This document shows, piece by piece, positions 6,169 through 28,369 of a stretch of 64,000 nt of DNA (position 1 is its first letter; each line of letters starts with the position of its first letter). The DNA comes from Dictyostelium discoideum. Lineage: Eukaryota. The DNA lies in contig CM000155.2 of NCBI GenBank assembly GCA_000004695.1, positions 1,152,001 through 1,216,000 on the forward strand, in the 5' to 3' direction. The notes under the pieces were generated by a model. The model worked only from the letters and a program-made list of their open reading frames with translations, was not told the DNA's origin and did no database searches. The position numbers and the translations under genes were made by a program.

Positions 6169-6215
<47 letters not shown>

Positions 6216-6290: not shown

Positions 6291-6322
<32 letters not shown>

Positions 6323-6942: not shown

Positions 6943-6954
6943 TCTCATGTGCTC

Positions 6955-6985
<31 letters not shown>

Positions 6986-7597
6986 ATTCCAATTCTCCAA
7001 TTAATTTTACTATTACAATAAATTAAAAAACTAAAAATATAATATAATAAAACTAAACTAAAAATATAAATTTTTAAAAAAATTTAAAAAATTAATTATT
7101 AATGTTGATTTTAAAAAAAAAGAAAAAAAGAAAACATAAAATAATTTCTATTGGTACATTTTAAATACCGAAACCAGATATTTATTTTTTTCATAGAAAG
7201 AATCGCTCATTTTTTTTTTTTTTTTTTTTCAAAAAAAAATTTTTTTATTGGACAAGAAATAAAATCTAAATTTTTTTTTCTTTTTTTTTTTTTCTTTTTT
7301 TTTTAAAAATCATCGTTCGTTATCTTAAAATAAAATTTGAAAAAAAAAAAATTGAAAAAAAAAAAGAGTTCTTCATACTAAAAATATTTTTTTTCCCCCC
7401 CCTATTTTAAATATCATCCAATTCTATAGACTCTTTCTTTTTACCTTTTTGATTTTTTTTTTTTTTAATAAAAAAAAAAAGAATAAGAAAAAAAAAGTAT
7501 TTAAACAAAAAAAAAAAAAAAATATTATTCAATTAAAAACAAAAAATATTTATATCTTGTAATTAATAATAATAACATTAGAAATAAACATTTAACA

Positions 7598-7628
<31 letters not shown>

Positions 7629-7632
7629 AAAA

Positions 7633-8147
7633 ATGAAATTAATTATCTCATTATTAATTCTCATTTGTACATTAAAATTATCATTTGGATGTGAAGGTGA
7701 CTTCAATCCAACCACTGCCAATATTGGTCAATGTTCAGCAAGTCAAACCGTTGGTTGGGTACCAGCTGCACCAGAGTATGGAACTGAGACATTAAAAGTT
7801 TGGACTCCAGAAGAATTAAGCCCAGAAGAAAGAGATATGCATGAACATCGTATGGCCTACATTTTAGCAATCTCAAAACAAACCAGAAGAAAATTTGTCA
7901 CCTCCATCTATGCTCAAAATGGTACTCTTTTATGCCATGGTGTTAATACTGGTAAACCAAATTTAATGACTCATGGTGAAGTTGCTGCAATTAACAATTG
8001 TACATCATTATATAACATAAGTTCATACACTAATATGACTCTCTACACAACTGGTGAACCCTGCGCGATGTGCTTAAGTATTAGGACCAACAATTAATTA
8101 TCATTATTATTTTTTTATTTATATATTTATTAATTTTTTAATTATTT

Positions 8148-8194
<47 letters not shown>

Positions 8195-8758
8195 CTTTCT
8201 TCCCTACAGGCTAGTGCATTATTATGGTTAGACTTCAAAGTTGTTGTTTGGGGTACTTGGAATTCTGATCTTATGTGTAAAGTTTGTATGGGTCAAATTC
8301 CAATGGATTCAAACTATATTTTCTCACGTTACTATGGTGTTAGAGCAACTCCACCAACTTTAATTGGTGGTATTCTTCGTAATGAAACTGATGCTTGGTT
8401 CACACCATATTGTAATAACCCAGCTTCACCATACTATGTTAAACCAAAATGTGCATGTTACAACTCAACTTCACCATTGGTAATTAATCAAGTCTCTTCC
8501 TCTACTTGGTATGAAGGCCCAAACAACACCAAATACAGTCAATTCGATGGTAAAATCTTAAACAATGCTAATTACGCTGTTAACAATCCAACTTTCACAT
8601 CCTCACCATCAGGTGTTAAACCACGTACTATTTGGGGTTTAAAGAATGAAGGTGGTGATATTTGGTCATTATCATATTACCCAGTCATTAGCGGAAATGG
8701 TGGAGCTTTCCCATTTGGTTATATTAGCACTCAAGAAATTACCTTTAAAGCTAATTAA
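7633..8758 (+). CDS. Secreted TadA/guanine-deaminase-like (CDA-fold) zinc deaminase with a CBM-like C-terminal domain, copy 1. Exons 7633..8073 and 8210..8758. The donor at 8074 is the non-canonical TTAAGT, so this copy may be a pseudogene.
   Basis: N-terminal signal peptide (MKLIISLLILICTLKLSFG). The zinc motifs are HGEVAAI (H-x-E) and GEPCAMC (P-C-x-x-C). The second exon continues the fold (ASALLWLDFKVVVWGT..IGGILRNETDAWF) behind a polypyrimidine tract and ccctacAG. It is paralogous to 24701..25843. Confidence 0.6.
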
Positions 8759-8868
8759 TTATTTATTACCAATTAAAAAGTCTTACCGACTTTATATAAT
8801 CATAAAAAAAAAAAAAAAAAAAATTAATCCGAATAAATTAATAAAAAGTAATACCTTTTTGTTCACAA

Positions 8869-9165
<297 letters not shown>

Positions 9166-9167
9166 TC

Positions 9168-9272
9168 TTAACTTCACTATTTGGAGGTGAAATTTTACCA
9201 ATTGTTGGGGTAACATCTGGCTTAGTAAATGGAGCAATCGAAGGCTTTACAAAGGGGGTTTTTAATTGGTAA
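9168..9272 (+). other. Second copy of the glycine-zipper segment (..LTSLFGGEILPIVGVTSGLVNGAIEGFTKGVF..).
   Basis: Nucleotide-level paralogue of 6810-6940. Confidence 0.2.
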
Positions 9273-9453
9273 TTTAATTTAATCTACAAATAACTAACCA
9301 ATTCTCATCAATATTTTGGACTGAAAAAAAAAAAAAAAAAGAAAATCTATTGAAATAGTAAAAATAATTGGAGAATTGGAATATTAAAAAAAGTAATATA
9401 AAAAGTATTTAATTAAATATAATAATAAAAAAAAAATCCGCATTTTTTATATT

Positions 9454-9998
9454 TTATTTAATATAAAGAGATATAATTAACATAAGTTTATGCAGTTGGT
9501 TGGAAAGCAATTTGGTCTTCACCATCGATGATGTAACCGAATGAGAAGGTTTGACCTGTTGGATGACTGGATACCATTGGAGAGCCCAAGTATTTTTGGT
9601 TTCATCAACAGCAAGACCCCAGATTGAGTTTGGACGGAGTGGAGATGAGGTGAAGGTTGGGTTGGTGACGGTTACTGAACCAGTGTTGGTGATGATACCA
9701 CCGAATTGAGAGACAGTTTTACCGTTTTCGAACCATGAGGAGTAAAGAGTTTGATCGATCTTTAATGGTGAAGTAGTGTTGGTACAGACACATTGTGGTT
9801 TAATGTAATAGATTGAAGTTGGTTTGCTACAGTATGAACCGAAACAGGCGTCAGCTTCAGTACGTAAGACACCACCGATAACTCTTGGTGGGCTAGCTCT
9901 TAAACCATAGTAACGACCCAAGATGTATGAGGAATCCATTGGGATGTTTGACATTCAGATTTTGCAAAGTAAATCACTGTTGAAGGTACCCCAGACAA
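9454..9998 (-). pseudogene. Decayed 3' fragment of a deaminase paralogue (second-exon region only).
   Basis: Homologous to 24701..25230. There is an in-frame TGA where the intact copies have TAT (gacattcag vs gacatacag near 9950). A 1-bp deletion near 9555 (cctgttgg vs cctggttgg) shifts the frame of the last ~25 codons. Homology to the intact copy ends at 9998, and no first exon lies upstream. Confidence 0.6.
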
Positions 9999-10320
9999 TG
10001 TGCTGAATGGTCTATTCGTGCAAACCGGGTAATAAAAGGTATTTTTTTTAAAAAAAAAAATGGACTACATGGGCTGAACTGTTTATTAGTGCCAACCGGG
10101 CTGATACAAGGTTTTTTTTTTTTTAAAAAAAAATAAATTGACTGCAAAGATTGACTGATAAAAGGTTTTTTTTTTAAAATGGGCAAAAATAAGGTTTTAA
10201 ATTTTTGATACGGACTGCACGGGCTAATCGAGATAAAAAAAAAAATATCACACTGACTACAAATTATTTTTTTAAAATAAAAAAGGACTACACAGGCTTA
10301 TAAAAAGGTTTTTTTTTAAA
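9990..10320. repeat. Irregular array of short GC-richer motifs (GGACTRCAYGGGCTR...) separated by T(n)A(n) spacers.
   Basis: Four or more related units are visible: ggactacatgggctgaactg, gccaaccgggctgatacaagg, cggactgcacgggctaatcgag, ggactacacaggcttataaaaagg. Confidence 0.4.
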
Positions 10321-11261
10321 AAATTAAAAAAAAAAAAAAATAAAAACAATAAAAAAACGATAAAAACATTACAATTTTTTAATTTTTTTATTTTTTCTTT
10401 TTTAAATGTATTTAAAAAATAAAATATATTTAATAAGAAAATATGAATATATTGTTTGAGACTTTGCAAAAAAAAAAAAAAACCTGAATGTATGTAGTAT
10501 TTTTTATTATTAATTTTTATTTTTTTTTATTTTTATTTTCTGGAAAATTAAAATAAAAAATCACTTTGCATATTATTTTAAGTTTTGTATTATTAATAAA
10601 TAAATAAATTATTTTACATTCTTATTTAGGAGAAAACCAATAAAATAAAAAATAATAAAATGAAATAATAAATAACGTTAATTTTTTTTTTTTTAGGTAA
10701 TGTGTGGTAAATTTTGAAAAAAAAATAAAATTTAATTAAAGTAATAACTAACAATTTTACATTTATATTTAGGAGTTTAAATCAAAAAAAATGAAATTAA
10801 AAATAATCAAATTAATAATATTAATAAATAAATAAAAAAAAAAAAAAAAAAAAAAATAAAATTACCGCATTATTTCATTTTTATTATTTTTTATTGAATA
10901 CTTTTTTTTTAAAAATAGATGGTTTTTTTAAAAATATTTAAGCCCACGTATATCCTAAAAAAACCTTTAAATAAATAACCGTTTCAAAAAAAGACGGTTA
11001 TTTATTTAAATATCTAAAAAAATAATTTTGTAAGGGCTGTACTCAACCCTTTAAAGTGCTGTACGGGCTATGCCCAAAATTAAAAACTTTGAGCACAACC
11101 CGCACAGCACTCTTAAGTGTTGCGCACAGTCCTTACAATGTTTTTACAATTTTGTTTGGGCTGTTGGGGCTTATAGTGCCAAAGTTAAAATTTTTCTCAG
11201 TGGTCGTGTATCTTTTTATATATATATGTTTTACAATTGAACTATACCAGATTATTTAATT

Positions 11262-12231
11262 TATCTAATTGTTAGCTGGTTGTAAAGAAATACCTTCTAA
11301 TAATTCTTCATTTTCATCGGTATAATCGACCAAGTCCAAACCAATTTTATTACTCTTGTCTTTATGAATTTGTTTTTTACATGAACGTTCAGTTCTGATA
11401 GCTTCAAAATACTTTGATAATATTAGTACTGCTAATGATGCTTTATTTTTATAGGTGGAACTAAAAACATTCTTTACAATACTAAGTTTGCTCTAAGGTG
11501 TAACATTTCTTGAATTCCCAGAATCTTTTTTTAATTTTAAACCTTGCTTTAAAGGTTGATTTTGAATTTGTTTACATGTTGCAGTGATACCATGATTTGA
11601 TAATAATTTATCTCTAATAGTTGATACACTTGGATCATCTTCAAATAATTTTTTTAAATGGAGTTGATTGGTTTCATCCCATAATTGATCACCAATAAAT
11701 TTAAAATTTGGAAGTTTAGTTAAATTATAGTTTCTTCCATCAACCAAAGTTGTGAAGAATTTTGATTAGCAACATTTTCCATCATTTGTGGTCTGTTAGC
11801 ATATGCAAAGAGAGCAGTTACAAAAAGATTTTCTTGATGCATGTCCCATGCTTGGCCAACCTTAGTACCATTATTAAATTTAACCTCTTGCAAGATTGGA
11901 ATTTCTTTCTTGGCACCTTCTATTCTGTCAACAAAACTATTAACTTGAGTACTATTAATGTTGATACCAGAGCACTTCATTTCAACAGAGGTATGAATAA
12001 TTTCCACCATGCATGACGAAGGCTTTAACAAAGGCTTGGATTGATGGCAAACTCCAGAGATATGCATCTTTGCCAGAGTAAACAAGTTGGCAGATACTTT
12101 GATAGAATGAGAACATTCGGTTATCGAAATTTAACTTTCCTTCAGGTTGTTGAATACCTTCACACAAATTATTAGGAATTAAACTAATATTTGGATTATC
12201 AAAAGTACTAAAATCAACAAAATGAACATTT
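11262..12231 (-). pseudogene. Pseudogene copy of the 345-aa element protein (paralogue of 18735..19772).
   Basis: ORF-track fragments 11493..11747, 11720..12085 and 11982..12167 together cover the homologue in three frames. The start codon is lost (ttattaaa vs tactcat). Several indels shift the frame. Confidence 0.6.
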
Positions 12232-12257
12232 TTTTTTTTTTTTGAAACATATTTATT

Positions 12258-12260
<3 letters not shown>

Positions 12261-12349
<89 letters not shown>
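12261..12349. repeat. Poly(T) homopolymer of ~89 nt (poly-A on the minus strand) just upstream of the decayed 345-aa ORF copy.
   Basis: Direct inspection. The equivalent tract in copy B (19773..19819) abuts the ATG of the intact ORF. Confidence 0.9.
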
Positions 12350-12352
<3 letters not shown>

Positions 12353-12565
12353 TTTACATGTATGTTTATTTATTTATTTATATTTATTTATTATTATATT
12401 CATTTGAAACCTTTTATTCATTATATTTTTTTTTTTAATAAATTATAGATATTATATATATAGAATACTATGGGTAAAAGGAAATAATAATGTTTGTTTG
12501 TAGTTGAAAATATTAAAATTAAAAATAAAAAAAAAAATATAACAAAAAAGATTTTATTTTAATAA

Positions 12566-12606
<41 letters not shown>

Positions 12607-13562
12607 CTTAAAATTTTTTTTTAAAAATTGTGTTTTTATATTTTCCAAACATACTTCATTTAAGGGGGGTCAGATTTACAATCATTTTAAAGGAATGGGG
12701 TTATAAATTTTCTTAAAATAATATTTTAAAATATCTTTGAAGTTAAACATATTTATGTATTTATATAATGATACGATTAGTTTATCAAAATGTGTTTGGT
12801 TGTTTATTATTATAATTGGTTGTTTATTATTATTATTATTTTTTTTAATTAATTACTGCATTTCTTTATTAGATTTAATAATAGTTTAGAAATAATAAAA
12901 TAATATATAAAAAATAAAAAAAAATAATATTAGTTGAAATAATAAAATTTTATATGGTATAATAAATAATTAAATAGTTTGAAATAATATATTAGTAAAA
13001 TTAAATAGTAAAATTAAAATAATAATTTGATACATATATTATTTTATAGATAAATAGTTCAATCATTGAAATAATAACAACAACAACAATAATAATAATA
13101 ATAATTATATATATATCATATTAATAATTAAAACTAGTTTGAAATTAATGGTAATTTAAAGGTTGATATAAATAAATTCAAAAAAATTTGTATGTATTAT
13201 TTTAGTTACTACCTACTACTTTTAAACATGTTGTATTAACATTATATTCAAATTTTTTATTACAATTCCTATAGATACAACTGTCTTTGATAAAAACATT
13301 TCACCTCAAATTAGTAAGTATTTTATTTTTATTATAGTATAGGTAACACTAGCGTTATTCTACAACTTTTTATATATTAACCTTGATAATAAATAATTCT
13401 TTAATCCGATTACTATAAAGATGAAATTTTAGATCTATTTGAATTTGGTATGTTTTAAATTTTATTATTATTATTTATAATTGCAATTATTAATTCTCAA
13501 CATTGGTGTATTAATATAAATTCAATAATTATTTAGATACTACAAAATCATCATATGAAGAT

Positions 13563-14068
13563 GTGATTGAAGAATACAGTAAATTTGAAAATGATTCTCT
13601 TGGATCATTTGAATATCTTGATTACAGTGATTTACGTTTATTATCTAAAAGAAAGTGGAATAATAAAGAAGCTTTAATCATAGGTAATGGTAAAAGTAAT
13701 TATAAAACAACTGTACAAATAAAAGGTGATTTGTTAGATAAAGGTTATTTTAGAACTGAACTTGCTATTGATACATAGTTTGATAGAAATAAGTATTAAT
13801 AAATAAAATGGTTAAAAATTTTAAAAGTACTCAAGAAACCATCACCAGTCATTTCAAGAAATTGGAGTCCAGATGAACAAAAAGCATTAATGGTTGAAGT
13901 TTCTACACTTGGTAATAAATCTGAAATCAACTGGTTTTTCATTTCTCAACAACTCTTTTTAAAAGGTATTAGTAGAAATGCAAGAGAATGTCAAAGAAAA
14001 CATGAATCAATCCAATATGTTGGTCTTTCAGGTAATCCAAAAGCTAAATTTAAAGGAACTTTTGATTA
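13563..14068 (+). pseudogene. Pseudogene copy of the Myb/SANT-domain 171-aa ORF (paralogue of 21788..22303).
   Basis: TAG at 13776 where copy B has TAC. A 1-bp deletion and a 7-bp deletion downstream (aaaccatcacc vs aaattataaaaccatcacc) shift the frame. Confidence 0.55.
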
Positions 14069-14696
14069 GTTTGTCATATATTTTAAATAAATAACATCTT
14101 CAATATAAAAAATTTCCAATAATTTTATTTTCTTTTTTTTTTGTTATTGATAGTACTTATAACAAAAAATGAATGATAAATAATTAAATTCTAAAAATAA
14201 AATTTTTGATTTAAAAAATAAAATAAAAAATTCAAAAAATAGAATGATTACACGGTGTTTATGATAATAATTTTTTTTTTAATTTTAAAAATTTTTTTAT
14301 TTTAATTTTTAATTTTTTTTTTTATTTTTTTTACCAATTCCAGTCTGTAAACAACATTCATGTATCGATCGTTGTCTACTGGTCCATGTCGATCATGTAA
14401 GTTAAAAACAAGTCCATATGTCGTTGTGGAAAGACCATTGAAAATAGACAATGTGGTTCAACAAGATATGACAAAGCATTTACTTGTGATGTTTGCAAAA
14501 TTCATGAATGTTGTCCAAGCACACCAACACATGATGAAGCAGGTAACCAAGATTGTATAATTTATTCTACATTTTCTTCACTCGATCCAAATTCACAAGA
14601 ATATGCAAATAAATTACAAATTGAGCCATTACAGTCTATATCAATAGTATCACCAAAAATTATTAAAAAAATTGAACCAATCCTTATAAAGATTGT

Positions 14697-14698
<2 letters not shown>

Positions 14699-14785
<87 letters not shown>
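14699..14785. repeat. (AGT)n trinucleotide repeat of ~29 units, reading as poly-Ser in the open plus frame.
   Basis: Direct inspection. A shorter version lies at 23857..23888 in copy B. Confidence 0.9.
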
Positions 14786-14786
14786 T

Positions 14787-15110
14787 TTAATAAATAATAA
14801 AAAATGAATTAATAATAAATTGTAAAGATAAAAAATTAAATAAATTTAATAATAATGAAATTAGAGTAGTATGTTTGCATTCTAATGAATCGATGTATTG
14901 TTGATATGTTAATCTTGATAATGTATAGGTTTTCAAAATTGTCATCCTTGCTATTGTGATCGCTTGACTTTTCCATTTGCTAAGATTATCTTTGATTGCT
15001 GTCAATTTTGAATTTAAACCTATTTTGGTGAAATTGAGACCTAAATATCTTTCTGGTGCATCGCTTAATTTGAATGGTAACCTTGGAGGTATGTCCCCAA
15101 TTACCATCAG
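14787..15110 (-). mobile_element. Fragment of a non-LTR (TRE/LINE-like) retrotransposon reverse transcriptase (3' thumb region only).
   Basis: The minus-strand translation ..PFKLSDAPERYLGLNFTKIGLNSKLTAIKDNLSKWKSQAITIARMTILKTYTLSRLTYQ.. matches the conserved post-YxDD segment of LINE RTs (F/YLG, K..KW...GR..L.K...L..Y). There is no upstream RT, endonuclease or ORF1. Confidence 0.4.
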
Positions 15111-15970
15111 GAAATCCCAAATACTTAATTCGGTTACTTATTTTAAATATGGAGTTAATATTTTGAAAAACTCTATAAATTGGATCATCTGGTAGTTGTG
15201 TTGAAGCAGTAGTGGTATTTGCAGTTGGTTTGTTTAAATTAAAAGTTGTTGGAGTATTTGAGGTTTGACCAACTGAATTATGGTTAGCAGAATTAGTATT
15301 GGTGGTGTTACAGGTAGCCATTATTTGATTAAAAATTTAAAATAATTATAAAAAATAATTTTACAATAAAATGAAAAATTTAATTTGTTATTAATATATT
15401 ATTATATTATTGTATATTAAAAAAAGATTGATTATTATTTTTTTTCAGAACCAATTAAAAAAGTACAAATCAGGTGGTAGTATTAACCAATTTGTATTTC
15501 ATCAGATGAAGGAGAATCATCAAACAAATATGATAATTATGATGATTATGAATCAGTCCTTAATCACCAATTTTACTAAAAAAGATGTTCCAACACAATA
15601 CCAACATTATTTGATAATACTAATTCAAGCAAATGCCCTGGTGTTTTTTTTCCAATACTTCAAATTTAAAACTTTATCGAAAATAATATTCGTTAAATTA
15701 TTAAATTAAGTAATATTACCATTTGAGCCTTAAAAAACACAATAGGTATTATCATCTTTGAAAAGTAAAAACATCCCTGCACAAACTGGGATATACAATT
15801 TAAAAAAAAAAAAACATTTTAGCTTTTTCTTGTAATTAATTTATTTTGTTATTTTGTATTATGTTTTGTATAAAAAGAAATTCCAAAAATAAAAAAGTTA
15901 TTCCAAAAAAAAAAATCGGCGTTGTTGTTTATATTTTATTTAATATAAAGAGATATAATTAATTATAAGT

Positions 15971-16477
15971 TTATGCAGTTGGTTGGAAAGCAATTTGGTC
16001 TTCACCGTCGATGATGTAACCGAATGAGAAAGTTTGACCTGGTTGGATGACTGGATACCATTGGAGAGCCCAAGTATTTTTGGTTTCATCAACAGCAAGA
16101 CCCCAGATTGAGTTTGGACGGAGTGGAGATGAGGTGAAGATTGGGTTGGTGACGGTTACTGAACCAGTGTTGGTGATGATACCACCGAATTGAGAGACAG
16201 TTTTACCGTTTTCAAACCATGAGGAGTAACGAGTTTGATCAATCTTTAATGGTGAAGTAGTGTTGGTACAGACACATTGTGGTTTAATGTAATAGATTGA
16301 AGTTGGTTTGCTACAGTATGAACCGAACCAGGCGTCAGCTTCAGTACGTAAAACACCACCGATAACTCTTGGTGGGCTAGCTCTTAAACCATAGTAACGA
16401 CCAAAGATGTATGAGGAATCCATTGGGATGTTTGACATACAGATTTTGCAAAGTAAATCACTGTTGAAGGTACCCAT
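15971..16477 (-). pseudogene. 5'-truncated deaminase paralogue (second-exon region from ..GTFNSDLLCKICM.. to the stop, intact frame).
   Basis: Near-identical to 24701..25210. Homology stops at 16477 (gaaggtaccc|atcttataag). No first exon or acceptor is present. The 3' flank is shared with copy 4. Confidence 0.6.
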
Positions 16478-17191
16478 CTTATAAGACCAATTAATTCCAA
16501 TGTGGCTTCATCTGTTGCAAATCGATTTTCATTTATTAACTCTTATAATAATCTATCAAAAATTAATAAAATTTCTTTTTTTTTAACATATTTTAAAATT
16601 ATTTATTAATTTTTAATAAATTTTATTATTAGTATTATTTTTTTAATATTAAAATTATAAATAAATGATTAATAAATTATTATTATTCACTAAATAATAT
16701 TATTTTTTGATTAATAAATAATTTCTATAATAAATAAGGAATATATTATTTGAAAAAAAATAAAAATTCTTATATTTTAAAATTTTTTATTTACACCCAT
16801 TATTTTTTATCATTTTATTATAGTTTTTAATAATATATAATATCATATTGTAACTCAAAAATATCTTGTTTATACTAATATTTATTTAATTTTATGAAAT
16901 GTTCTAAATAGAACATTTAAAAATAACTATTAATATTGAATTAATAATTCAATATTAATTATTGCTAACTTAATTTATTTTAATAAATTGTTTCATTTTA
17001 TATAATAAACTCACTAAACACAACTAAATAATAATTCAAAAATAAATAATAATAATTTAGAATATAGTTTTGTTTCAACATTTTATTATAACACATACAA
17101 TTCAGAAAATAATAATAATTTATTTTATTGTTTTGTTTAAAGGGGTTTTCTCCCGTTGTAATTAAATTTAATTAATTTTAAATTTAATTTT

Positions 17192-17233
<42 letters not shown>

Positions 17234-17414
17234 TTAATTTGAATTTCACAAAAGTTTTCATAATAGATATTAGATACCAGATATTAAAAATGTCACACAA
17301 AATCACCATATAAAATAATAATATAAATTTAAAAATAATTTAATTAAAAAGAAAATAATAATTAATTAGAATAAAATTAAAATAATATAATATTGTAGTT
17401 TAAATTGGATCTAA

Positions 17415-17542
17415 CCCTATCGGCTGAGGTTGGAGTAGTTAACAGATTTGAGTCTGCTCAAATCTGAGGACTATAAAAGGAAACTAGGTTTCTAATTCAA
17501 CCTCAGTAATAAATATATACAAATAATAAAAACGCGATAGGG
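17415..17542. other. Conserved nested-hairpin element. It may be a structured RNA or a repeat-internal structure.
   Basis: Outer stem ccctatcg (17415-22) pairs with cgataggg (17535-42). Second stem ctgaggttg (17424-32) pairs with caacctcag (17498-506). Inner 10-bp stem cagatttgag / ctcaaatctg (17443-66) has a 4-nt loop. The copy at 22876..23000 keeps all the stems but has a different loop (tctg vs cgaa) and differences in the unpaired part. Confidence 0.3.
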
Positions 17543-17701
17543 CTACGGTCATTAATTAAATACATGTGTACATTTATTTCTTAAATAATTAATCATTTAT
17601 TTTAATAATAAAATAAATAAATTGAATAATAATAAAACAATAAATAAAATTAATAATAATAAATAATCAAATTTTATTAAATAATTTATTAAAAAAAAAG
17701 A

Positions 17702-18070
17702 ATGTCAACTAATAATAATAATAACAACAATAATAATAATGAAGATATTGATAATGATGAATTGCAACAACAGGATAATGAGGAACAACAACAACAACCA
17801 CAGGTATCAACTTTCAATGAACAGCAACGTCAAATAAGGGAACAGCAACAGGTAATAGATAAACAAAATCAACTTCTTCAACAACACATTCAATTAATAA
17901 ATCAACAATCTCAACAACAATTAAATAACCATTCGACACCACCATCATCACCCAACATTACAACACCAATAACTTCAGCAGCAATAACCAACACAATAAA
18001 GAAATCATTAGGAAAAATTAACACTGATGACACCGACCACCAGTTGTTACACATATATGATAAACTATAG
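17702..18070 (+). CDS. 122-aa Gln/Asn-rich ORF of unknown function belonging to the composite repeat.
   Basis: ATG-initiated ORF. A truncated direct copy lies at 23164..23322. An inverted partial copy of its 3' half lies at 23470..23640. Confidence 0.35.
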   Translation: MSTNNNNNNNNNNEDIDNDELQQQDNEEQQQQPQVSTFNEQQRQIREQQQVIDKQNQLLQQHIQLINQQSQQQLNNHSTPPSSPNITTPITSAAITNTIKKSLGKINTDDTDHQLLHIYDKL

Positions 18071-18734
18071 TTTTATGTTTTAAAAAATGAGAAATTACAA
18101 TAGTATTATTTCCTATTAATTGTTGTATATTATTAAATTATAGGTTTATGTTTTAAAAAATGAGAAATTACAATAGTATAATTTCTCAAAATATGGTAGA
18201 TAAATAAATTTTTTATAGTTTAATGACAAATTAATATTCAATTTTAATTAAAATATTATTAGATTTTATCAATTTTTAATTTATATTAAAATATATTTTT
18301 ATTATGGCCAGATTCTTTTTTATTATTTTATGATAATTTAATAATAAAGTGTGATTAATTATTAATTAGAAATTAATATTAGTTTGTTATAAATTTTATT
18401 AAATTATAATATCATTTCTTAAAATATAAGTTTTTGCGGGTTTAATTTCTCACAAAATAGTAAAATTTCTTAGTTTTTTTTCTCTGGTGAAATAAAATAA
18501 TATAAAATAAAATAAAATAAAATAAAACAAAATAAAACAAAACAAAACAAAACAATTTGAACCCATTTCATCTTCTAAATACACGAAAATTAAAATAAAA
18601 AACACATGTGTTGCAACACTTTTTTTTTTTATTACTTTTTTTATTATTTTTTTTATTATTTTTTTTTTATGATCTTTTTATATATATATTTTACAATTTT
18701 ACTATTCTATAATACCAGATTATTTTATTTAGAT

Positions 18735-19769
18735 CTAATTGCTAGCTGGTTGTAAAGAAATACCATCTAATAATTCTTCTTCATTTTCATCGGTATAATC
18801 GACCAAGTCCAAACCAATTTTAATACTCTTGTCTTTATTAATTTGTTTTTTACATGAACGTTCAGTTCTGATAGCTTCGAAATACTTTGATAATATTAGT
18901 ACTGCTAATGATGCTTTATTTTTATAGGTGGAACTAAAAACATTCTTTACAATACTAAGTTCTTCTTTGCTCCAAGAGGTAACATTTCTTGAATAAGTAG
19001 AAACTTTTTTTAATTTTAAACCTTGCTTTAAAAGTTGACTTTGAATTTGTTTACTTGTTACAGTGATACCATGATTTGATAATAATTTATCTCTAATAGT
19101 TGATACACTTGGATCATCTTCAAATAATGTTTTTAAATGGAGTTGATTGGTTTCATCCCATAATTGATCACCAATAAATTTAAAATTAGGAAGTTTAGTT
19201 AAATTATAGTTTCTTCCATCAACCAAATTTGTGAAGAATTTTGGACTTAAATTATAACCATTTAAATGAAAAATGTTGCTAATCATTTGTGGTCTGTTAG
19301 CATATGCAAAGAGAGCAGTTACAAAAAGATTTTCTTGATGCTCGTCCCATGCTTGGCCAACCTTAGTACCATTATTAAATTTAACCTCTTGCAAGATTGT
19401 TGGAATCTCTATCTTGGCACCTTCTATTCTGTAAACAAAACTTTTAACTTGAGAACCATTAACGTTGATACCAGAGCACTTCATTTCAACAGAGGTATGA
19501 GTTTTATTTCCACCATGCATGACGAAAGCTCTAACAAAAGCTTGGATTGATGGCAAAGTCCAGAGATATGCATCTTTGCCAGAGTAAACAAGTTGGCAGA
19601 TACTTTGATAGAATGAGAACATTCGGTTATCGAAAAAAAATAATACCTTTCCTTCAGGTTGTTGAATACCTTCACACAAATTATTAGGAATTAAACTAAT
19701 ATTTGGATTATCCAAAGTACTAAAATCAACAACATGAACATTTTTTTTTGTTTTTGAAACCTTTTTACT

Positions 19770-19772
<3 letters not shown>
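18735..19772 (-). CDS. 345-aa ORF of unknown function with a Myb/SANT-like C-terminal segment. Element-encoded protein.
   Basis: Intact ATG-to-stop ORF. The start codon is immediately preceded by a 47-nt poly-A (minus-strand sense). The C-terminal WSKEELSIVKNVF...LSKYFEAIR resembles a SANT/Myb helix pattern. I recognised no DDE or transposase motifs. Confidence 0.5.
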
Positions 19773-19821
<49 letters not shown>

Positions 19822-20607
19822 TTAATAAATTATTGATATTATATATATATAATATTATGGGTATAGTTGAAAATATGAAAATTAAAAATAAAAAAAAAAT
19901 ATAACAAAAAAGATTTTATTTTAATAACAAAAATAAAAAAAAAAAAAAAAAAAAAAAAATCTTAAAATTTTTTTTTAAAAATTGTGTTTTTATATTTTCT
20001 AAACATACTTCATTTAAGGGGGTCAGATTTACAATCATTTTAAAGAGATGGGGGGTTATAAATTTTCTTAAAATAATATTTTAAAATATCTTTGAAGTTA
20101 AACATATTTTAAAATAATATTTTAAAATATCTTTGAAGTTAAACATATTTATGTATTTATATAAATATATATAATGATACGATTAGTTTATCAAAATGTG
20201 TTTGGTTGTTTATTATTATAATTGGTTGTTTATTATTATTATTTTTTTTTTTTTTAATTAATTACTGCATTTCTTTATTATTAGATTTAATAATAGTTTA
20301 GAAATAATAAAATAATATATAAAAAATAAAAAAAAATAATATTAGTTTGAAATAATAAAATTTTATATGGTATAATAAATAATTAAATAGTTTAAAATAA
20401 TATTAGTAAAATTAAATAGTAAAATTAAAATAATAATTTGATACATATATTATTTTATAGATAAATAGTTCAATCATTGAAATAATAACAACAACAACAA
20501 CAACAATAATAATAATAATTATATATATATCATATTAATAATTAAAGCTAGTTTGATAAATTATTATATATTAGCATATTAAATAAAATTAATAATAATT
20601 TATAAAA

Positions 20608-21354
20608 ATGGATGAACCTTCAACAGATAAAATTTTAATTGGTGCTCAAATCATTACAACAGTTATAACATTGTTCACTGGTGTTTTTGAATTTATTATT
20701 GCTGCAAAAAGCAAAATGAAAAGAATGAAAAGTGAACAAATGTTTTCAGTAAATCAAGATGGATTAATACATATTATTAAATCACTATTACCAGGTCGTA
20801 ATATAATTTTCATCAGCAATGCACCAACCAGCACCACAGATCCATCATTCAACAGCCAGACAATGAAAAACTTTTTAAAAGTAATATTTAGATTACTACC
20901 GTTTTTCATTGGTGCTGTCTTTATACATTTAAATATAATACCGTTTCATCATTTAATTATTTTTACTGAAAATGGTAAATGGTACTTTGATAGTATACAA
21001 GAAGAATTAATACCTATTGTAAAAGAAAGATTAAAGCAAATAATGTCATCTCAACCTGATGTCATATTTGCATGTGGTGCTGTGGTAAGGGATATATTTT
21101 ATATGTATCTTGAAGAAGGTTCAATTGAAATGGTTGGTAATAATATATTCGTGTATATAAATAAAGATGGTACGAAAAAAACTATTATTTGTTTTGTTCC
21201 ACACTTTTGTACTCGTAAAGATCATTGGAAGTTTATTGCTCAAGGATTATTATTTATTCATACTCATTTCAAATTATCAACATTCAATACAAATTATTTT
21301 GAAAAAAACAAACCAGAAATTAATTTTAAAGATATTAGATATATAGTTCTTTAA
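20608..21354 (+). CDS. 248-aa ORF of unknown function with a hydrophobic N-terminal segment. It is present only in copy B of the element.
   Basis: ATG at 20608. Absent from copy A, where the flanks ctagtttga.. are fused. Confidence 0.35.
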   Translation: MDEPSTDKILIGAQIITTVITLFTGVFEFIIAAKSKMKRMKSEQMFSVNQDGLIHIIKSLLPGRNIIFISNAPTSTTDPSFNSQTMKNFLKVIFRLLPFFIGAVFIHLNIIPFHHLIIFTENGKWYFDSIQEELIPIVKERLKQIMSSQPDVIFACGAVVRDIFYMYLEEGSIEMVGNNIFVYINKDGTKKTIICFVPHFCTRKDHWKFIAQGLLFIHTHFKLSTFNTNYFEKNKPEINFKDIRYIVL

Positions 21355-21787
21355 ACTAGTTTGAAATTAATGGTAATTTAAAGGTTGATATAAATAAATT
21401 CAAAAAAATTTGTATGTATTATTATTTTAGTTACTACCTACTACTTTTAAACATGTTGTATTAACATTATATTCAAATTTTTTATTACAATTCCTATAGA
21501 TACAACTGTCTCTGACAAAAACATTTCACCTCAAAGTAGTAAGTATTTTATTTTTATTATAGTATAGGTAACGCTAGCGTTATTCTACAACTTTTTATAT
21601 ATTAACCTTGATAATAAATAATTCTTTAATCCGATTACTATAAAGATGAAATTTTAGATCTATTTGAATTTGGTATGTTTTAAATTTTATTATTATTATT
21701 TATAATTGCAATTATTAATTCTCAACATTGGTGTATTAATATAAATTCAATAATTATTTAGATACTACAAAATCATCATATGAAGAT

Positions 21788-22303
21788 GTGATTGAAGAAT
21801 ACAGTAAATTTGAAAATGATTCTCTTGGATCATTTGAAAATCCTGATTACAGTGGTTTCCATTTATTATCTAAAAGAAAGTGGAATAATAAAGAAGCTTT
21901 AATCGTAGGTATTGGTAAAAGTAATAATAAAACAACTGTACAAATAAAAGGTGATTTGTTAGATAAAGGTTATTTTAGAACTGAACTTGCTATTGATACA
22001 TACTTTGATAGAAATAAGGTATTAATAAATAAAATGGTTAAAAATTTTAAAAGTACTCAAGAAATTATAAAACCATCACCAGTCATTTCAGGAAATTGGA
22101 GTCTAGATGAACAAAAAGCATTAATGGTTGAAGTTTCTACACTTGGTAATAAATCTGAAATCAACTGGTTTTTCATTTCTAAACAACTCTTTTTAAAAGG
22201 TATTAGTAGAAATGCAAGAGAATGTCAAAGAAAACATGAATCAATCCAATATGTTGGTCTTTCAGGTAATCCAAAAGGTAAATTTAAAAGAACTTTTGAT
22301 TAG
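21788..22303 (+). CDS. Myb/SANT-domain protein (171-aa ORF). The 5' end is unresolved. The track start is GTG and the frame is open from 21740, so an upstream exon is likely.
   Basis: The motif WSLDEQKALMVEVSTLGNKSEINWFFISKQLFLKGISRNARECQRKH is a canonical Myb/SANT repeat. An acceptor-like ttatttAG lies at 21759-21760. Confidence 0.45.
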   Translation: MIEEYSKFENDSLGSFENPDYSGFHLLSKRKWNNKEALIVGIGKSNNKTTVQIKGDLLDKGYFRTELAIDTYFDRNKVLINKMVKNFKSTQEIIKPSPVISGNWSLDEQKALMVEVSTLGNKSEINWFFISKQLFLKGISRNARECQRKHESIQYVGLSGNPKGKFKRTFD

Positions 22304-22641
22304 TTTGTCATATATAAATAAATAACATATTCAATATAAAAAATTTCCAATAATTTTATTTTCTTTTTTTTTTTTTATTGATAGTACTTTTAACAAAAAA
22401 TGAATGTAAATAATTAAATTGTAAAAATATAATTTTTGATTTAAAAAATAAAATAAAAAATTCAAAAAATAAAATAATTACACCGGGTGTCTAATTTGAA
22501 TGTTACTATTAATAATTTTTTTTTTAATTTTAAAAATATTTTTATTTTAATTTTTTATTTTTTTTTTTATTTTTTTTACCAATTCCAGTCTGTAAACAAA
22601 ATCATTAAATACTTAATTAATTTTAAATTAAATTTAATTTT

Positions 22642-22686
<45 letters not shown>

Positions 22687-22875
22687 TTTGAATTTCACAA
22701 AAGTTTTCATAATAGATATTAGATACCAGATATTAAAAATGTCACACAAAATCACCAAATTTATATATTTTATAAAATAATAATATAAATTTAAAAATAA
22801 TTTAATTAAAAAGAAATAATAATTAATTAGAATAAAATTAAAATAATATAATATTGTAGTTTAAATTGGATCTAA

Positions 22876-23000
22876 CCCTATCGGCTGAGGTTGGAGTAGT
22901 TAACAGATTTGAGCGAACTCAAATCTGAGGACTATAAAAAGAAACTAGGTTTCTAATTCAACCTCAGTAATAAATATATACAAATAAAAACGCGATAGGG
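22876..23000. other. Second copy of the nested-hairpin element.
   Basis: Same three stems as 17415..17542. The loop differs. Confidence 0.3.
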
Positions 23001-23163
23001 CTAGGGTCATCAATTAAATATATGTGTACATTTATTTCTTAAATAATTAATCATTTATTTTAATAATAATAAAATAAATAAATTCAATAATAATAAAACA
23101 ATAAATTAAATTAATAATAATAATAAATAACCAAATTTTATTAAAAAAATTTATTTTAAAAGA

Positions 23164-23322
23164 ATGTCAACTAATAATAATAATAACAACAATAATAATA
23201 ATGAAGATATTGATAATGATGAATTGCAACAACAGGATAATGAGGAACAACAACAACAACAACCACAGGTATCAACATTCAATGAACAGCAACGTCAAAT
23301 AAGGGACAGCAGCAGGTACTAG
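23164..23322 (+). pseudogene. Truncated copy of the 122-aa Q-rich ORF (first ~50 codons, then a stop).
   Basis: Identical N-terminus ([47 protein letters not shown]), then a divergent sequence and TAG. Confidence 0.4.
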
Positions 23323-23895
23323 ATAAACATTACCACAAGTAAATACATTGTCATATCTTGTTGAACCACACCACATTGTCTATTTTCAGTGGTCTTTCCA
23401 CAACGACAGATGGACTTGTTTTTAACTTACATGATCCACATGGACCAGTAGACAACGATCGTGTAACAACTGGTGGTCGGTGTCATCAGTGTTAGTTTTT
23501 CCTAATGATTTCTTTATTGTGTTGGTTATTGCTGCTGAAGTTATTGGTGTTGTAATGTTGGGTGATGGTGGTGGTGTCGAATGGTTATTTAATTGTTGTT
23601 GGGATTGTTGATTTATTAGTTGAATGTGTTGTTGAAGAAGTTGACTTTGTTTGCAAAATTCATGAATGTTGTCCAAGCACACCAACACATGATGAAGCAG
23701 GTAACCAAGATTGTATAATTTATACTAGATTTTCTTCACTCGATCTAAATTCACAAGAATATGCAAATAAATTACAAATTGAGCCATTACAGTCTATATC
23801 AATAGTATCACCAAAAACTATTAAAAAAATTGAACCAATCCTTATAAAGATTGTAAGTAGTAGTAGTAATAGTAGTAGTAGTAGTAGTATTTAAT

Positions 23896-24000
23896 AAATA
23901 ATTAAAAATGAATTAATTCATTAATTATAATTAATTATAATTAATTCATTAATTATAATTAATTATAATTAATTCATTAATTATAATTAATTATAATTAA
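23896..24000. repeat. Tandem repeat of ~3 copies of the 32-bp unit aattcattaattataattaattataattaatt.
   Basis: Direct inspection. Confidence 0.8.
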
Positions 24001-24700
24001 TTATTTATATATATAATATATAAAGAAAACAAACAATTAAATATTTAATTGATTCAATTCAATTATTTTAATTCAAATGGAACTATCAAATGAAATATAG
24101 AGAAAAGAAAGCATTAAATAAAATTTTTTAAGAAATCATCTTATCAAATACCATCACTAAGATTAAGTGAAACTGTTGGAATAGGTACATCAGGTAATAG
24201 TTCAAGTAATAGTATCAACAATAACAACAGTAGTAATGGCCAAAATTATGCATCCATTAAGTCCAATTCGTTGTGGTGGTATTAATAATCAAAAACAACC
24301 AAAATTAGAAGTTTTATCACCTGCTTTATTATTTAGAGAATTTTAGAAATTTAGATTCAATTTTAATATACCTCTCAAATTAAAATCATTTTAATCAATA
24401 TGATCCATCCATGTTTTATACAACTAATAATATTAATAATGAATCTACTAAAAGACACAATCAACAAAATTAAAATCATTGACTGTTTTTAGTAGATAAA
24501 ATCATTTTTAAAAGATTGTTGGTGAAAAAAAAAAAAAACATTTTAGCTTTTTCTTGTGATTAATTAATTTATTTTGTTATTTTGTATTATGTTTTGTATA
24601 TACAAAAAGAAATTCCAAAAATAAAAAAGTTATTAAAAAAAAAAATCCGCATTGTTGCTTATATTTTATTTAATATAAAGAGATATAATTAATTATAAGT

Positions 24701-25335
24701 TTATGCAGTTGGTTGGAAAGCAATTTGGTCTTCACCGTCGATGATGTAACCGAATGAGAAAGTTTGACCTGGTTGGATGACTGGATACCATTGGAGAGCC
24801 CAAGTATTTTTGGTTTCATCAACAGCAAGACCCCAGATTGAGTTTGGACGGAGTGGAGATGAGGTGAAGGTTGGGTTGGTGACGGTTACTGAACCAGTGT
24901 TGGTGATGATACCACCGAATTGGGAGACAGTTTTACCGTTTTCAAACCATGAGGAGTAACGAGTTTGATCGATCTTTAATGGTGAAGTAGTGTTGGTACA
25001 GACACATTGTGGTTTGATGTAATAGATTGAAGTTGGTTTGCTACAGTATGAACCGAACCAGGCGTCAGCTTCAGTACGTAAGACACCACCGATAACTCTT
25101 GGTGGGCTAGCTCTTAAACCATAGTAACGGCCAAAGATGTATGAGGAATCCATTGGGATGTTTGACATACAGATTTTGCAAAGTAAATCACTGTTGAAGG
25201 TACCCCAGACAATGGTTTTGAAGTCAGCCCACAAAAGAGCAGCTGAGCACATGGCGCATGGCTCTATAGGAGTTTGTTAGTTGTTCAATTGATTGATCAC
25301 ATGATCATTCATTATTATTTTTTAAAAAAATAAAA

Positions 25336-25395
<60 letters not shown>

Positions 25396-25843
25396 AGTAT
25401 TTGTAGATTAAAACATTATTATTACATATTAATTACTTACCTCCAGAAGTGTAAAGAGTGTAGTTGGTGAAAGAGGTGATACCGTGTAAAGCAGTACAGT
25501 TGTTGATGGCAACGATTTCACCATGTGAAATGATATTTGGTTTACCAGTGTTGACACCAAGACACATTAAAGTACCATTTTGGTGGTAGATTGAAGCAAC
25601 GAATTTCTTATTTTGTTGTTTGGCGATGGCAAGGACGTAAGCCATACGTTCTTCGTGCATACCTAATTCTTGTGGATCGAGATCAGCTGGAGTGAGAACT
25701 TGAGCATTGTCGGTTGGTTTCCAGCTTACTTTTTGAGTGGCTGTACATTCACCGATGGTTGAAATGTTTGGATTGAATTCATCGCATGCAAATGATAATG
25801 CAATAAATGCGAGTAAAATAGTTAATAATAAAGCAATCTTCAT
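24701..25843 (-). CDS. Secreted TadA/guanine-deaminase-like zinc deaminase with a CBM-like C-terminal domain, copy 4 (apparently intact). Minus-strand exons 25441..25843 and 24701..25263 (~321 aa).
   Basis: Signal peptide MKIALLLTILLAFIALSFA. Core motifs are HGEIVAI and, across the intron, G|EPCAMCSAALLWADFKTIVWGT. Exon 1 ends at phase 1 on a GTAAGT donor (rc of acttac at 25435-25440). The acceptor is cctatAG (rc of ct at 25264-25265). The C-terminal ~110 aa (CVCTNTTSPL..WFENGKTVSQFGGIITNTGSVTVTNP..NTWALQWYPVIQPGQTFSFGYI) reads like a CBM2-type beta-sandwich. Confidence 0.65.
25337..25393. repeat. Poly(A) homopolymer of ~57 nt inside the deaminase intron.
   Basis: Direct inspection. Confidence 0.9.
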
Positions 25844-26098
25844 TTTGAATTTGTTTTATTATATAATTTTTAAATTTGTTTTAATAATAGTACAAAAGGT
25901 AATGTTAACAAATATAAGAATGTATATAAGAGAGATGTTTGTTTGTTTTGAATGATTAAAAAAAAAAAATTATTTTAAATTTATACAAAAAAAAAAATAA
26001 AAAACTTTTCGAGATATTTCCAAACTGTCACAAACGAAAATTTAATTTGGTGTTTTTTGAGCTTGTTTTTTTGAAAAAAATATCAAAAAATAAAAAGC

Positions 26099-26130
<32 letters not shown>

Positions 26131-26317
26131 GTTATTTTTTGTTGTTATTTTTAGAGCCATATAATAAAAATACAATAAAACGACCACTGCTCGTTTTCTA
26201 TTGGTAATTAAAAAAGAGTTTTCATTATTTTTTTATTGGTTTATTGTTTTCTTTTAAAAATAAAAAAACCATATGGCACAATTTTATACAAACTGCCAAA
26301 TTATTAATTGAGGCACT

Positions 26318-26355
<38 letters not shown>

Positions 26356-27220
26356 TAACCTCCATATTTTCGATTTCAATTGTTAATCGACAATCATTTT
26401 TCACACAGAGTTTCACTAAAATACTCGAATAAATTAGAAAAGAAAAAAAAACAGATCATCAAAGATTAAAAATGAGATAAAATAATGATTTGAATAATTT
26501 TCATTTTATTTCAAAAAAAAAAACTGATAAAAACGATTAAAAATTTCAATCTCCTACAATCTAATTTTAACAAGAGATAAACTACATTTATGTATTAGTA
26601 CAAGTTCAACATAATTGTCACAAAAAAAAAAAAAAAAAAATATAAACTTTCAATGAATTTTTAAATTTTAAACAAAATTTCATTACATATCTTTTTTTGA
26701 AGATATCTTTTTTTTTTTTTTACAATAAAATTAATTCTTTCATATTTAAATAGTTTTTTTACTTTATAATTTAATTAAATGTTGTAATTTAATTTAATTA
26801 AAAAAAATAAAAAAAAGTGTAGAATCAAATTCATTATGATAATGCAAATATGATTGAAAATTCTTGCTTTAAAATAAAAAGTTTTAATTAAAAAGAAAGA
26901 AAATGATTGGTCAAAGTGGTTGATGCTATTTTTGAAACCCATGTTTTGATTTTACTAAAAAACTGTTTTAAAGTGTAAAACAATATCGTCATTTAATTTT
27001 AGACTAAAATTTGCGTATGCTTTTTATTTTTAATTTTTTTTATTTTTTTTTTTATTTTTTTTTTTAATTTTTTTTTTTTTATTTTTATTTTTTAACTGCA
27101 ATGAAAAAAATCTTTTGAATACCAATAGGTTATAACAATTTATTAATTTTTATTTATATTCCAATAATAATAATAAGATAATATTATCTTTGACCATTCA
27201 TTTTCAAATTTGAATAAATG

Positions 27221-27254
<34 letters not shown>

Positions 27255-28006
27255 AAACTTAATTTTAAAAATAATGCAATTTCGGTTTCTCTCATAAAAA
27301 ATTGAAAAGTAATTTTATGCGGCACTGGGTTTGTCTCTTTTTTTTACTTTTATTTTTTTATTTTTATGTGACTCCCTTAAAATATCTTTGTGATTACAAA
27401 TTTTTTTATTTTATTTTTATTTTATTTTTATTTTTTATTTTTTTTTTTTTTATTTTATATTTTATTTTATTTTATATTTTATTTTATTTTTTTTTTACTC
27501 AAAAAAAACCGTGTTTTTTGAATCTAACAAATAACCAATTCAATGAGATTCAATTGGTGGCCAAAATGTAATAATTTTATATTTATTGAAATTTTAAATA
27601 GAGTAATCCAAATACTATCAATTTATTCAATAGTTGAAAGAATGGTAATAGAAAGGTAGTGAGTTATTAAGATAGTTGTATAAAGAAAATAATGGTATTA
27701 AAAATAAAGAATCTATAATTTCAATTTTATCAAATATAAAAAAAATATGTCGTAAAAAAATTTAATAAAAATTAATTAAAAATAAAATAAAACCTAACAA
27801 AATTCAATTTAAAGCGTTTAACCAAATAGTGTTGGTTTTTTTTTTTTTTTGAAAAATTTTATTATTTTTTTGATAAGTTTCAAAGTAAAAAAAACTGCAA
27901 AAAAAAAAATCATTCCGATGCGGCAAGAGATCATTTTTTATTAAAATTTTTTTTTTTTTTTAGTTTTTAAATTAATTTTATATACATAACATTTTAATTA
28001 ATCAAA

Positions 28007-28332: not shown

Positions 28333-28369
<37 letters not shown>

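Follow-up and report, generated by a model that had tools for sequence, protein, structure and literature searches.

Genes and Features of the Locus

We analyzed a window of 64,000 nt from Dictyostelium discoideum (GenBank assembly GCA_000004695.1, contig CM000155.2, positions 1,152,001–1,216,000 of the forward strand), in which a first-pass annotation, made from the sequence alone, had described a conserved nested hairpin at positions 17415–17542. All coordinates given here are window positions unless another locus is named. The G+C content of the window, which is D. discoideum nuclear DNA, is ≈22%. Two of its open reading frames (ORFs) were identical to DDB_G0292090 and DDB_G0292094 of strain AX4, and the locus is also carried by assembly GCA_054883475.1. 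The hairpin was found to be an internal part of a discrete repeat of ≈1.2 kb, here named H, which occupies positions 16849–18051. H has the ends and the target-site duplications (TSDs) of a mobile element, and the hairpin very probably belongs to that element.

The hairpin itself is ≈37% G+C and lies within an intergenic region of roughly 10–15% G+C. The sequence at 17405–17555, with its core at 17415–17542 on the forward strand, folds as a branched, nested hairpin, that is, an imperfect palindrome. The outer helix, P1, pairs 17415–17422 (CCCTATCG) with 17535–17542 (CGATAGGG) over 8 bp. It is followed by P2 (17423–17434 with 17496–17507, 10–12 bp), by P3 (17435–17440 with 17469–17474, 6 bp, of which two are G·U) and by an apical stem (17443–17452 with 17457–17466), a perfect 10-bp helix with a 4-nt loop at 17453–17456. 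The 3′ side also holds a side hairpin of 6 bp (17479–17484 with 17488–17493), which was missing from the stems listed in the first-pass annotation, and an unpaired, A/T-rich bulge of 27 nt (17508–17534).

When folded as forward-strand RNA, the hairpin had a minimum free energy of −52.3 kcal/mol, compared to a mean of −25.9 kcal/mol for shuffled sequences (z = −7.4), and none of 200 shuffles folded as well. The reverse-strand RNA reached −44.1 kcal/mol (z = −6.0), while folding with DNA parameters gave z = −7.5. The nested hairpin proposed by the first-pass annotation was thus confirmed by folding, with a stability far beyond that of shuffled sequence for both RNA and DNA.

Ends, Target Sites and Copies of H

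In the full-length H at 16849–18051 (forward strand), termed copy A, ≈570 nt separate the hairpin from the 5′ end of the element and ≈510 nt from its 3′ end. H runs from TGTAACAAGATCTC to CCAGTTGTTACA, and the five full-length copies, found in two species, share TGTAACAAGATCTC...TTGTTACA. The ends, 5′-TGTAACAA...TTGTTACA-3′, form an 8-bp terminal inverted repeat (TIR; TGTAACAA/TTGTTACA) with TGT...ACA termini. Copy A begins with TGTAAC, 6 bp (AAGATC) having been deleted relative to the other copies, and ends in ...CCAGTTGTTACA. The 5′ end of H (16849–16880; clearer at 3164–3200 of locus L002) is a small hairpin, TGT-AACAAGAT-CTCAAAAAT-ATCTTGTT, kept in both species; copy A is without 6 bp of it.

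Further loci were reached through homologues of the 122-aa ORF that lies downstream of the hairpin. Two more D. discoideum copies were found at other sites, one on another chromosome-scale contig (L002, 3164–4326) and one at the locus of DDB_G0271474 (L004, 3234–4190). Copy A was 93% identical to both of these over 1.2 kb, with common end points, and the full-length copies were 91–94% identical throughout. In D. cf. discoideum (GCA_054859235.1) there were two copies with the same ends (L009, 2166–3341; L008, 2192–3338) and one 5′-truncated copy (L003). Together with the two copies in the window, this makes a sample of seven, within ≈160 kb of sequence. A covariance model built from the seven copies found no additional ones in 158 kb, and neither the apical hairpin nor the conserved 21-mer, used as exact patterns, had a match among the metagenome contigs scanned.

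Copy A is flanked by the 5-bp sequence CATAT, at 16844–16848 on the left and at 18052–18056 on the right. The other full-length insertions have AGTTT (L002), AATTG (L004), AAATA (L009) and ATAAA (L008), so that all five insertions, of which D. discoideum has three and D. cf. discoideum two, differ in their 5-bp TSD. We estimated the chance of a 5-bp match at this base composition to be ≈0.004 per site. Because the ends are consistent and all five insertions have 5-bp TSDs, H is an integrase-type mobile element, and its termini and TSDs are the footprint of a retroviral-type integrase or a DDE transposase. The first-pass annotation had suggested a transposon terminal hairpin among other candidates. 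The mobile-element context was borne out by the defined ends, the TSDs and the absence from one strain of the 14.6 kb block described below, but the hairpin is internal to the element, not terminal.

H contains an A(37) tract at 17193–17229 (forward strand). Two copies that were 5′-truncated independently, the second copy in the window and L003, start 10–40 nt upstream of this tract and retain the exact 3′ end of H.

The Second Copy and the Composite Block

The second copy in the window, copy B, is 5′-truncated and occupies 22628–23329 on the forward strand, equivalent to 17178–17865. Its P1 pairs 22876–22883 with 22993–23000, and its apical loop, at 22914–22917, is CGAA. Copy B is an aberrant insertion, truncated just upstream of A(37) and with its exact 3′ end joined to an exon. 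The paralogous empty site of that exon lies at 14361, in an upstream repeat unit; copy B has no TSD, and 11 bp of the target were lost. After insertion, ≈320 bp at 23330–23652 were inverted, comprising the last ≈190 bp of copy B (23461–23652, reverse strand, equivalent to 17861–18052) and 123 bp of the host exon (23330–23452, the inverse of 14361–14483). A reverse-strand ORF at 23422–23688 still joins H and exon sequence in one frame (...DHQLLHDRCLLVHVDHV).

Both copies lie in a composite block of 14.6 kb (≈10000–24635). A different D. discoideum strain (GCA_054859385.1) does not have this block at its syntenic locus (L006), where the sequences equivalent to 289–10000 and 24635–36336 are contiguous. 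The "composite element" of the first-pass annotation is therefore real, in the sense of a block that this strain lacks. Besides the two H copies, the block contains two extra copies of a deaminase/CBM49 gene fragment and a doubled unit of 3–4 kb (11210–14361, repeated at 18672–22605). At its left edge (10000–10300 and 10950–11200), short, relatively G+C-rich motifs, GGACTACATGGGCTGAAC, GGACTGCACGGGCT, GGGCTGTACTCAACCC and similar, recur between long runs of A or T; these may be remnants of another repeat family.

Comparison of Copies A and B

It had been proposed that copy B preserves every stem base of copy A and differs in the apical tetraloop and in unpaired stretches, so that conservation would be confined to paired positions. 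The second hairpin does exist at 22876–23000, and its P1, P2, P3 and apical stem were identical to those of copy A. One paired base did differ, however: one copy has G and the other A at position 17479 of the side hairpin, so that a G·U pair becomes A–U. The reported loop difference, TCTG in copy A and CGAA in copy B, was correct, and since a second assembly of the locus has the same two loops, they are not assembly errors. Copy B also lacks 3 nt of an unpaired A/T stretch.

The restriction of conservation to the stems did not hold. Both hairpins are included in a duplication of ≈700 bp (17178–17865, equivalent to 22628–23329), whose 680 aligned bases differed by 21 substitutions (3.1%). The stretch of 235 nt directly upstream of the hairpin, which is unstructured and almost pure A/T, had a single substitution and is at least as conserved as the stems. 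At the background rate, the probability of no substitution in 54 stem bases is ≈0.25. Stem-only conservation is therefore not demonstrated, as the flank is at least equally conserved and unchanged stems are expected by chance one time in four. The only difference between the two copies that exceeded chance was the cluster of four adjacent changes in the tetraloop. On the sequence comparison, the similarity of copies A and B is accounted for by descent from one element about 3–7% divergence ago, and selection on base pairs need not be invoked.

The Apical Loop

The tetraloop (TCTG in copy A, 17453–17456, forward strand) proved to be a mutation hotspot. Among the four D. discoideum copies there are three types of loop: TCTG in copy A, CGAA in copy B and TTCG in both L002 and L004. 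CGAA is the exact reverse complement of TTCG, and the 10-bp arms around it are unchanged; the asymmetric internal loop outside the arms is not inverted in copy B. Since the two loops are exact reverse complements and the arms are complementary to each other, the difference points to an inversion with break points inside the arms. We infer that one of the two loop states arose by a flip at the DNA level within the palindrome. The flip could have occurred by template switching or by recombination between the 10-bp arms while the DNA was extruded as a hairpin or cruciform, and it would indicate that the palindrome is extruded in vivo. The suggestion in the first-pass annotation of a recombination site is supported in this narrow sense.

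TCTG differs from TTCG at two positions. By our estimate, the probability of two hits within 4 nt is <1% at 3.5% divergence per lineage. Judging from these copies, the 4-nt loop changes much faster than the rest of the element, and it is a hotspot beyond the flip itself. Small inversions of hairpin loops between perfect inverted repeats, known as "flip-flop", have been described mainly in chloroplast non-coding DNA. As in the chloroplast cases, the loop of H was replaced by its exact reverse complement with the arms unchanged, and it evolves faster than its surroundings. Unlike those cases, H consists of nuclear mobile-element copies, and the third loop, TCTG, needs two further substitutions.

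Comparison of Seven Copies in Two Species

The four D. discoideum and three D. cf. discoideum copies were compared in one alignment (A4). Over this alignment, 93.6% of the cells in the predicted structure were paired, and 39 of the 48 pairs were invariant. No compensatory, two-sided change of a pair was found in the seven copies, and the covariation score, 0.019, was below the shuffled mean of 0.028; the low variation among the seven copies makes this test uninformative, not negative. The first-pass annotation had stated that random, uncompensated stem substitutions in additional copies, together with a lack of transcription, would count against a functional structure. Such substitutions were indeed found, three in all: in L002, the C–G pair that closes the apical stem is changed to C·A and a G–C pair of the side hairpin to A·C, and in L004 a C in P1 is changed to A. 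They say little about function, however, because a mobile-element copy that is dead accumulates neutral changes regardless of what was needed in the master copy.

Between D. discoideum and D. cf. discoideum, the element had a mean identity of 82%, with many indels. Within it, two blocks of 21 nt were identical between the species: a 5′ block (GATCTAACCCTATCGGCTGAG, 17408–17428, forward strand; an exact match between copy A and L009), which includes the 5′ arm of P1 and its neighbors, and a 3′ block (ATAATAAAAACGCGATAGGGC, 17523–17543, forward strand), which includes the 3′ arm of P1 and its neighbors. GATCTAACCCTATCGGCTGAG and ATAATAAAAACGCGATAGGGC are the longest G+C-containing blocks identical between the species in the whole element. 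P1 is still the helix around which the D. cf. discoideum version folds (z = −4.6). One pair of a helix designated P0 is U–A in D. cf. discoideum and U·G in D. discoideum, a one-sided change.

A segment of ≈40 nt (17428–17469, forward strand), comprising the 5′ arm of P3 and the apical hairpin and bordered by the direct repeat CTGAGG, had no counterpart in any of the three copies from D. cf. discoideum (L003, L008, L009). The base of the hairpin, that is, P1 and its neighbors, looks constrained in this comparison, while the apical 40 nt would be a dispensable extension specific to D. discoideum. Two features suggest something beyond neutral decay: the basal helix conserved across species and the flipping loop.

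The ORF of H

H has a single ORF, on the same strand as the hairpin, which lies 160–290 nt upstream of it. In copy A this is a 122-aa ORF at 17702–18070 (forward strand), starting 160 nt downstream of the hairpin. There is no stop codon inside H, and the ORF reads across the 3′ terminus into the flank. The ORF products P0006, P0009, P0012 and P0013 accordingly have the H part in common and diverge exactly at the end of the element (17702–18070 in the window, 4001–4432 in L002 and 4001–4408 in L003); P0012 is a chimera of copy B and the disrupted host gene. A Pfam search of the H ORF and the neighboring ORFs gave nothing above the curated thresholds, and since its ORF has no Pfam domain, H is presumably not autonomous. 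In a hand count, the last 27 codons of the ORF had 4 synonymous and 8 non-synonymous differences between the species. As there is no clear purifying selection in these codons, we do not claim the ORF as a real gene.

The H copy at L002 (3100–4700) sits among FNIP-repeat/B-box genes arranged in tandem; comparison to the paralogue at 6019–6537 of the same locus shows that it has taken the place of ≈145 bp of one of these gene copies.

What Kind of Element Is H?

TGTNR termini of the TG...CA type and 5-bp TSDs make up the retroviral-type integrase pattern, which in Dictyostelium is carried by long terminal repeat (LTR) retrotransposons and by the Tdd-4/Tdd-5 (Ginger2) DNA transposons (PMC2836005). 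H has identical ends at unrelated sites, and all five full-length copies have the TG...CA/TGTNR termini and a TSD of fixed length, 5 bp, within the 4–6 bp expected of integrase-type elements. One possible assignment is to the solo LTRs; the other is to the DNA transposons of the Tdd/Ginger2 type, of which H would be a non-autonomous member moved in trans.

Like the solo LTRs of the Ty3/gypsy and Ty1 types (in Dictyostelium, Skipper and DGLT-A), H has TG...CA/TGTNR ends, a short TIR and 5-bp TSDs, and its truncated copies retain the 3′ end exactly, which also suits a solo LTR. The gag gene of Ty1 begins within the LTR and extends beyond its 3′ end; similarly, the H ORF starts inside the unit and runs off its 3′ end. 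At L010, the last 141 nt of H (10104–10244, 96% identical) lie within the coding region of the 369-aa protein P0016. This protein has an AX4 relative, DDB_G0294302, belongs to a multi-copy family and has no Pfam domain. The shared stretch stops precisely where H does, and the next bases, TGGTAGC, are reminiscent of a primer-binding site, although the match to the typical initiator-tRNA site is just 7 nt. The gene is situated between DIRS-1 reverse-transcriptase and tyrosine-recombinase fragments, and P0016 might be a gag-like gene product or DIRS-1 ORF1.

On the other hand, the known LTRs of D. discoideum are 208–390 bp long (PMC5006619), whereas H, at 1.2 kb, is three to six times longer, and no full-length LTR element, with two direct H units around gag-pol, a primer-binding site behind the 5′ unit and a polypurine tract ahead of the 3′ unit, was found in the ≈160 kb reached. 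Copies A and B, which lie 5.4 kb apart in direct orientation, were considered as the LTR pair of one element and rejected as such: copy A has its own 5-bp TSD, while copy B is 5′-truncated and located within an exon; the intervening sequence is, in addition, present without H in the upstream repeat unit. The literature on H3R, a DGLT-A solo LTR adjoining tRNA genes, was not applicable here.

With the Ginger2/Tdd transposons H shares the host, the 5-bp TSDs, the TGTNR termini and the A/T-rich targets. TDD-4 and TDD-5 carry TIRs of 145–300 bp and an integrase-like transposase (PMC2836005); H differs in having a TIR of 8 bp, compared to the ≈50–300 bp expected of this group, and no integrase-like (HHCC + DDE) transposase gene. 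The truncated H of D. cf. discoideum (L003) has, at a distance of 1 kb upstream, a DDE_Tnp_4 (PIF/Harbinger-type) transposase gene (891–2538) as its neighbor. This gene is probably there by coincidence, as the other copies have no such neighbor. We rejected H as part of a Harbinger-type element for the same reason, and because the Harbinger TSD is 3 bp.

Search for an Independent Noncoding RNA

The proposal that the hairpin might be a structured noncoding RNA (ncRNA) gene was not supported. A search of the whole window against Rfam (release 15) at the gathering threshold gave no match; at E ≤ 10 over 17300–17650 there was only a chance A/T-rich fragment of a long ncRNA, outside the hairpin, and at E ≤ 1 the whole element gave no match in either species. 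ARAGORN found no tRNA or transfer-messenger RNA in the window. Of the nine small RNAs that Table 2 of PMC4894637 lists, none mapped to the window or the other loci with up to 3 mismatches. A literature search with substrings of the hairpin returned unrelated primers only, and the supplements of Dictyostelium small-RNA papers contained no match.

The longest uninterrupted helix is 10 bp, whereas a Dictyostelium microRNA (miRNA) precursor is expected to yield a duplex of ≈21 nt, with small-RNA reads from either arm (PMC6161686). Helices this short do not suit Dicer. Like class I RNAs, small nucleolar RNAs (snoRNAs) and miRNA precursors, it is a structured, relatively G+C-rich island in A/T-rich intergenic DNA. 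Dictyostelium class I RNAs, however, are 42–65 nt long, with a single short terminal stem, a conserved 11-nt motif and a Dictyostelium upstream sequence element (DUSE; [AT]CCCA[CT]AA) ≈60 nt before the start, whereas the hairpin is 128–150 nt long and branched. No DUSE-like CCCA[CT]AA was present at 17330–17414, the ≈80 nt before the hairpin. Unlike snoRNAs, the hairpin had no visible C/D or H/ACA box arrangement.

Possible Function of the Hairpin

We favor, with moderate confidence, the reading in which the hairpin is an internal palindrome of the mobile element H that has a cis-acting base. For the second part taken by itself, the base as a cis-acting part of the element, our confidence falls a little short of even. 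P1, the start of P2 and their immediate flanks would act in cis for the element. We suggest this because they form the best-conserved complex non-coding sequence between the species, lie 160–290 nt upstream of an ORF on the same strand and belong to a hairpin that folds better on the forward strand. Our preferred version is that P1 acts as a long-range closing helix in the leader of a forward-strand H transcript, but the P1 arms could equally be a pair of inverted protein-binding sites in an H promoter. A leader or a promoter role would each control the expression or the handling of the element RNA. The RNA version is favored by the better fold of the forward strand (−52.3 compared to −44.1 kcal/mol), by several G·U pairs and by the one-sided change from U–A to U·G. 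The RNAs of retroelements commonly have structured leaders that are closed by long-range helices. After insertion, the copies of H decay, with uncompensated hits in stem bases.

Several points weigh against this reading. Compensatory changes are absent, and the conserved arms could be conserved as primary sequence, e.g., as protein-binding sites. Function at the RNA level and at the DNA level both fit, the cis role being derived from sequence and predicted folds. The apical part cannot be essential to the element, because one species is without it, even though most of the folding energy resides there. The sample of seven copies is small and amounts to a comparison of only two subfamilies, so that the two identical 21-nt blocks are suggestive, without a rate test.

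The palindrome might also be functionless, a relic of a foldback- or miniature inverted-repeat transposable element (MITE)-like insertion or of a template-switch duplication in an ancestor of H, carried passively ever since, with the conserved arms a sampling effect. The 6-bp direct repeat CTGAGG at the borders of the apical 40 nt that D. cf. discoideum lacks fits an insertion, a duplication or a slippage deletion, and the lack of covariation, the uncompensated stem substitutions and a DNA-parameter fold as significant as that of RNA all agree with a relic. We consider it less likely than our preferred reading, though still a serious rival: neutral sequence of that age should have diverged like its surroundings, yet no G+C-containing stretch that matches exactly between the species is longer than the P1 arms with their flanks, in an element of 82% mean identity with many indels, and uncompensated hits in dead copies are uninformative about the master lineage. 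Somewhat less likely still is an action at the DNA level, in which the inverted blocks would be paired sites for a transposase, an integrase or a transcription factor, or would belong to a promoter. In favor of this, the exact sequence of the arms is conserved, together with that of unpaired neighbors such as ATAATAAAAACG, and the spacing between the arms differs by 40 nt between the species, as protein-bridged or independent sites would tolerate. One variant is a reverse-strand promoter: the start sites of Dictyostelium primary miRNA transcripts are G residues preceded by T-rich runs (PMC6161686), a layout matched by the reverse-strand T(37) run, which terminates in a G at 17192. However, no protein is known to bind here, nor is a binding motif known; the perfect complementarity of the arms over 8 bp, extended by additional pairs to both sides, would not be needed by independent sites, and the G·U pairs favor forward-strand RNA.

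Least probable by far is a structured ncRNA gene of its own, whether snoRNA-like, class I-like or for a miRNA precursor, whose place in the duplicated segment would be fortuitous. The strongly structured island of ≈37% G+C would suit such a gene, and some Dictyostelium miRNAs are derived from a repeat, thug-S (PMC4894637, PMC6161686). Against it stand the lack of any Rfam match, even with permissive thresholds, for the hairpin or the whole element in both species, and of any tRNA; a longest helix too short for Dicer and no mapping small RNA from Table 2 of PMC4894637; no WCCCAYAA in the 80 nt upstream; and an apical hairpin that is missing in the sister species. Returning to H as an element with a cis-acting base, the fullest version combines several proposals at once and, as a whole, is a long shot. 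In this version, the D. discoideum species complex would have in H an integrase-type element so far unclassified; the basal helix would work as a cis-acting RNA leader, in control of translation, packaging or dimerization; the ORF, lacking a stop, would fuse to host sequence upon every insertion; and the apical palindrome, specific to D. discoideum, would flip, giving a variable loop identity, with UUCG and CGAA mutually complementary.

Implications

For the study of such repeats, loop-only differences between recent copies are no evidence of a functional RNA; the proper control is the divergence of the unstructured flanks. H ORFs have been annotated as ordinary hypothetical genes, as in DDB_G0271474 and in the 122-aa ORF adjoining DDB_G0292094, and insertions of H into coding sequence, as in the FNIP-repeat gene copy and the exon in the window, lead to chimeric gene models. 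The results indicate that Dictyostelium carries a low-copy, integrase-type mobile element with an internal palindrome. With its inverting loop, the palindrome would serve, in a nuclear genome of extreme A/T richness, as a small natural reporter of DNA extrusion into hairpins or cruciforms. Should the conserved basal helix prove to be a leader element, studies of the expression of H could start from it.

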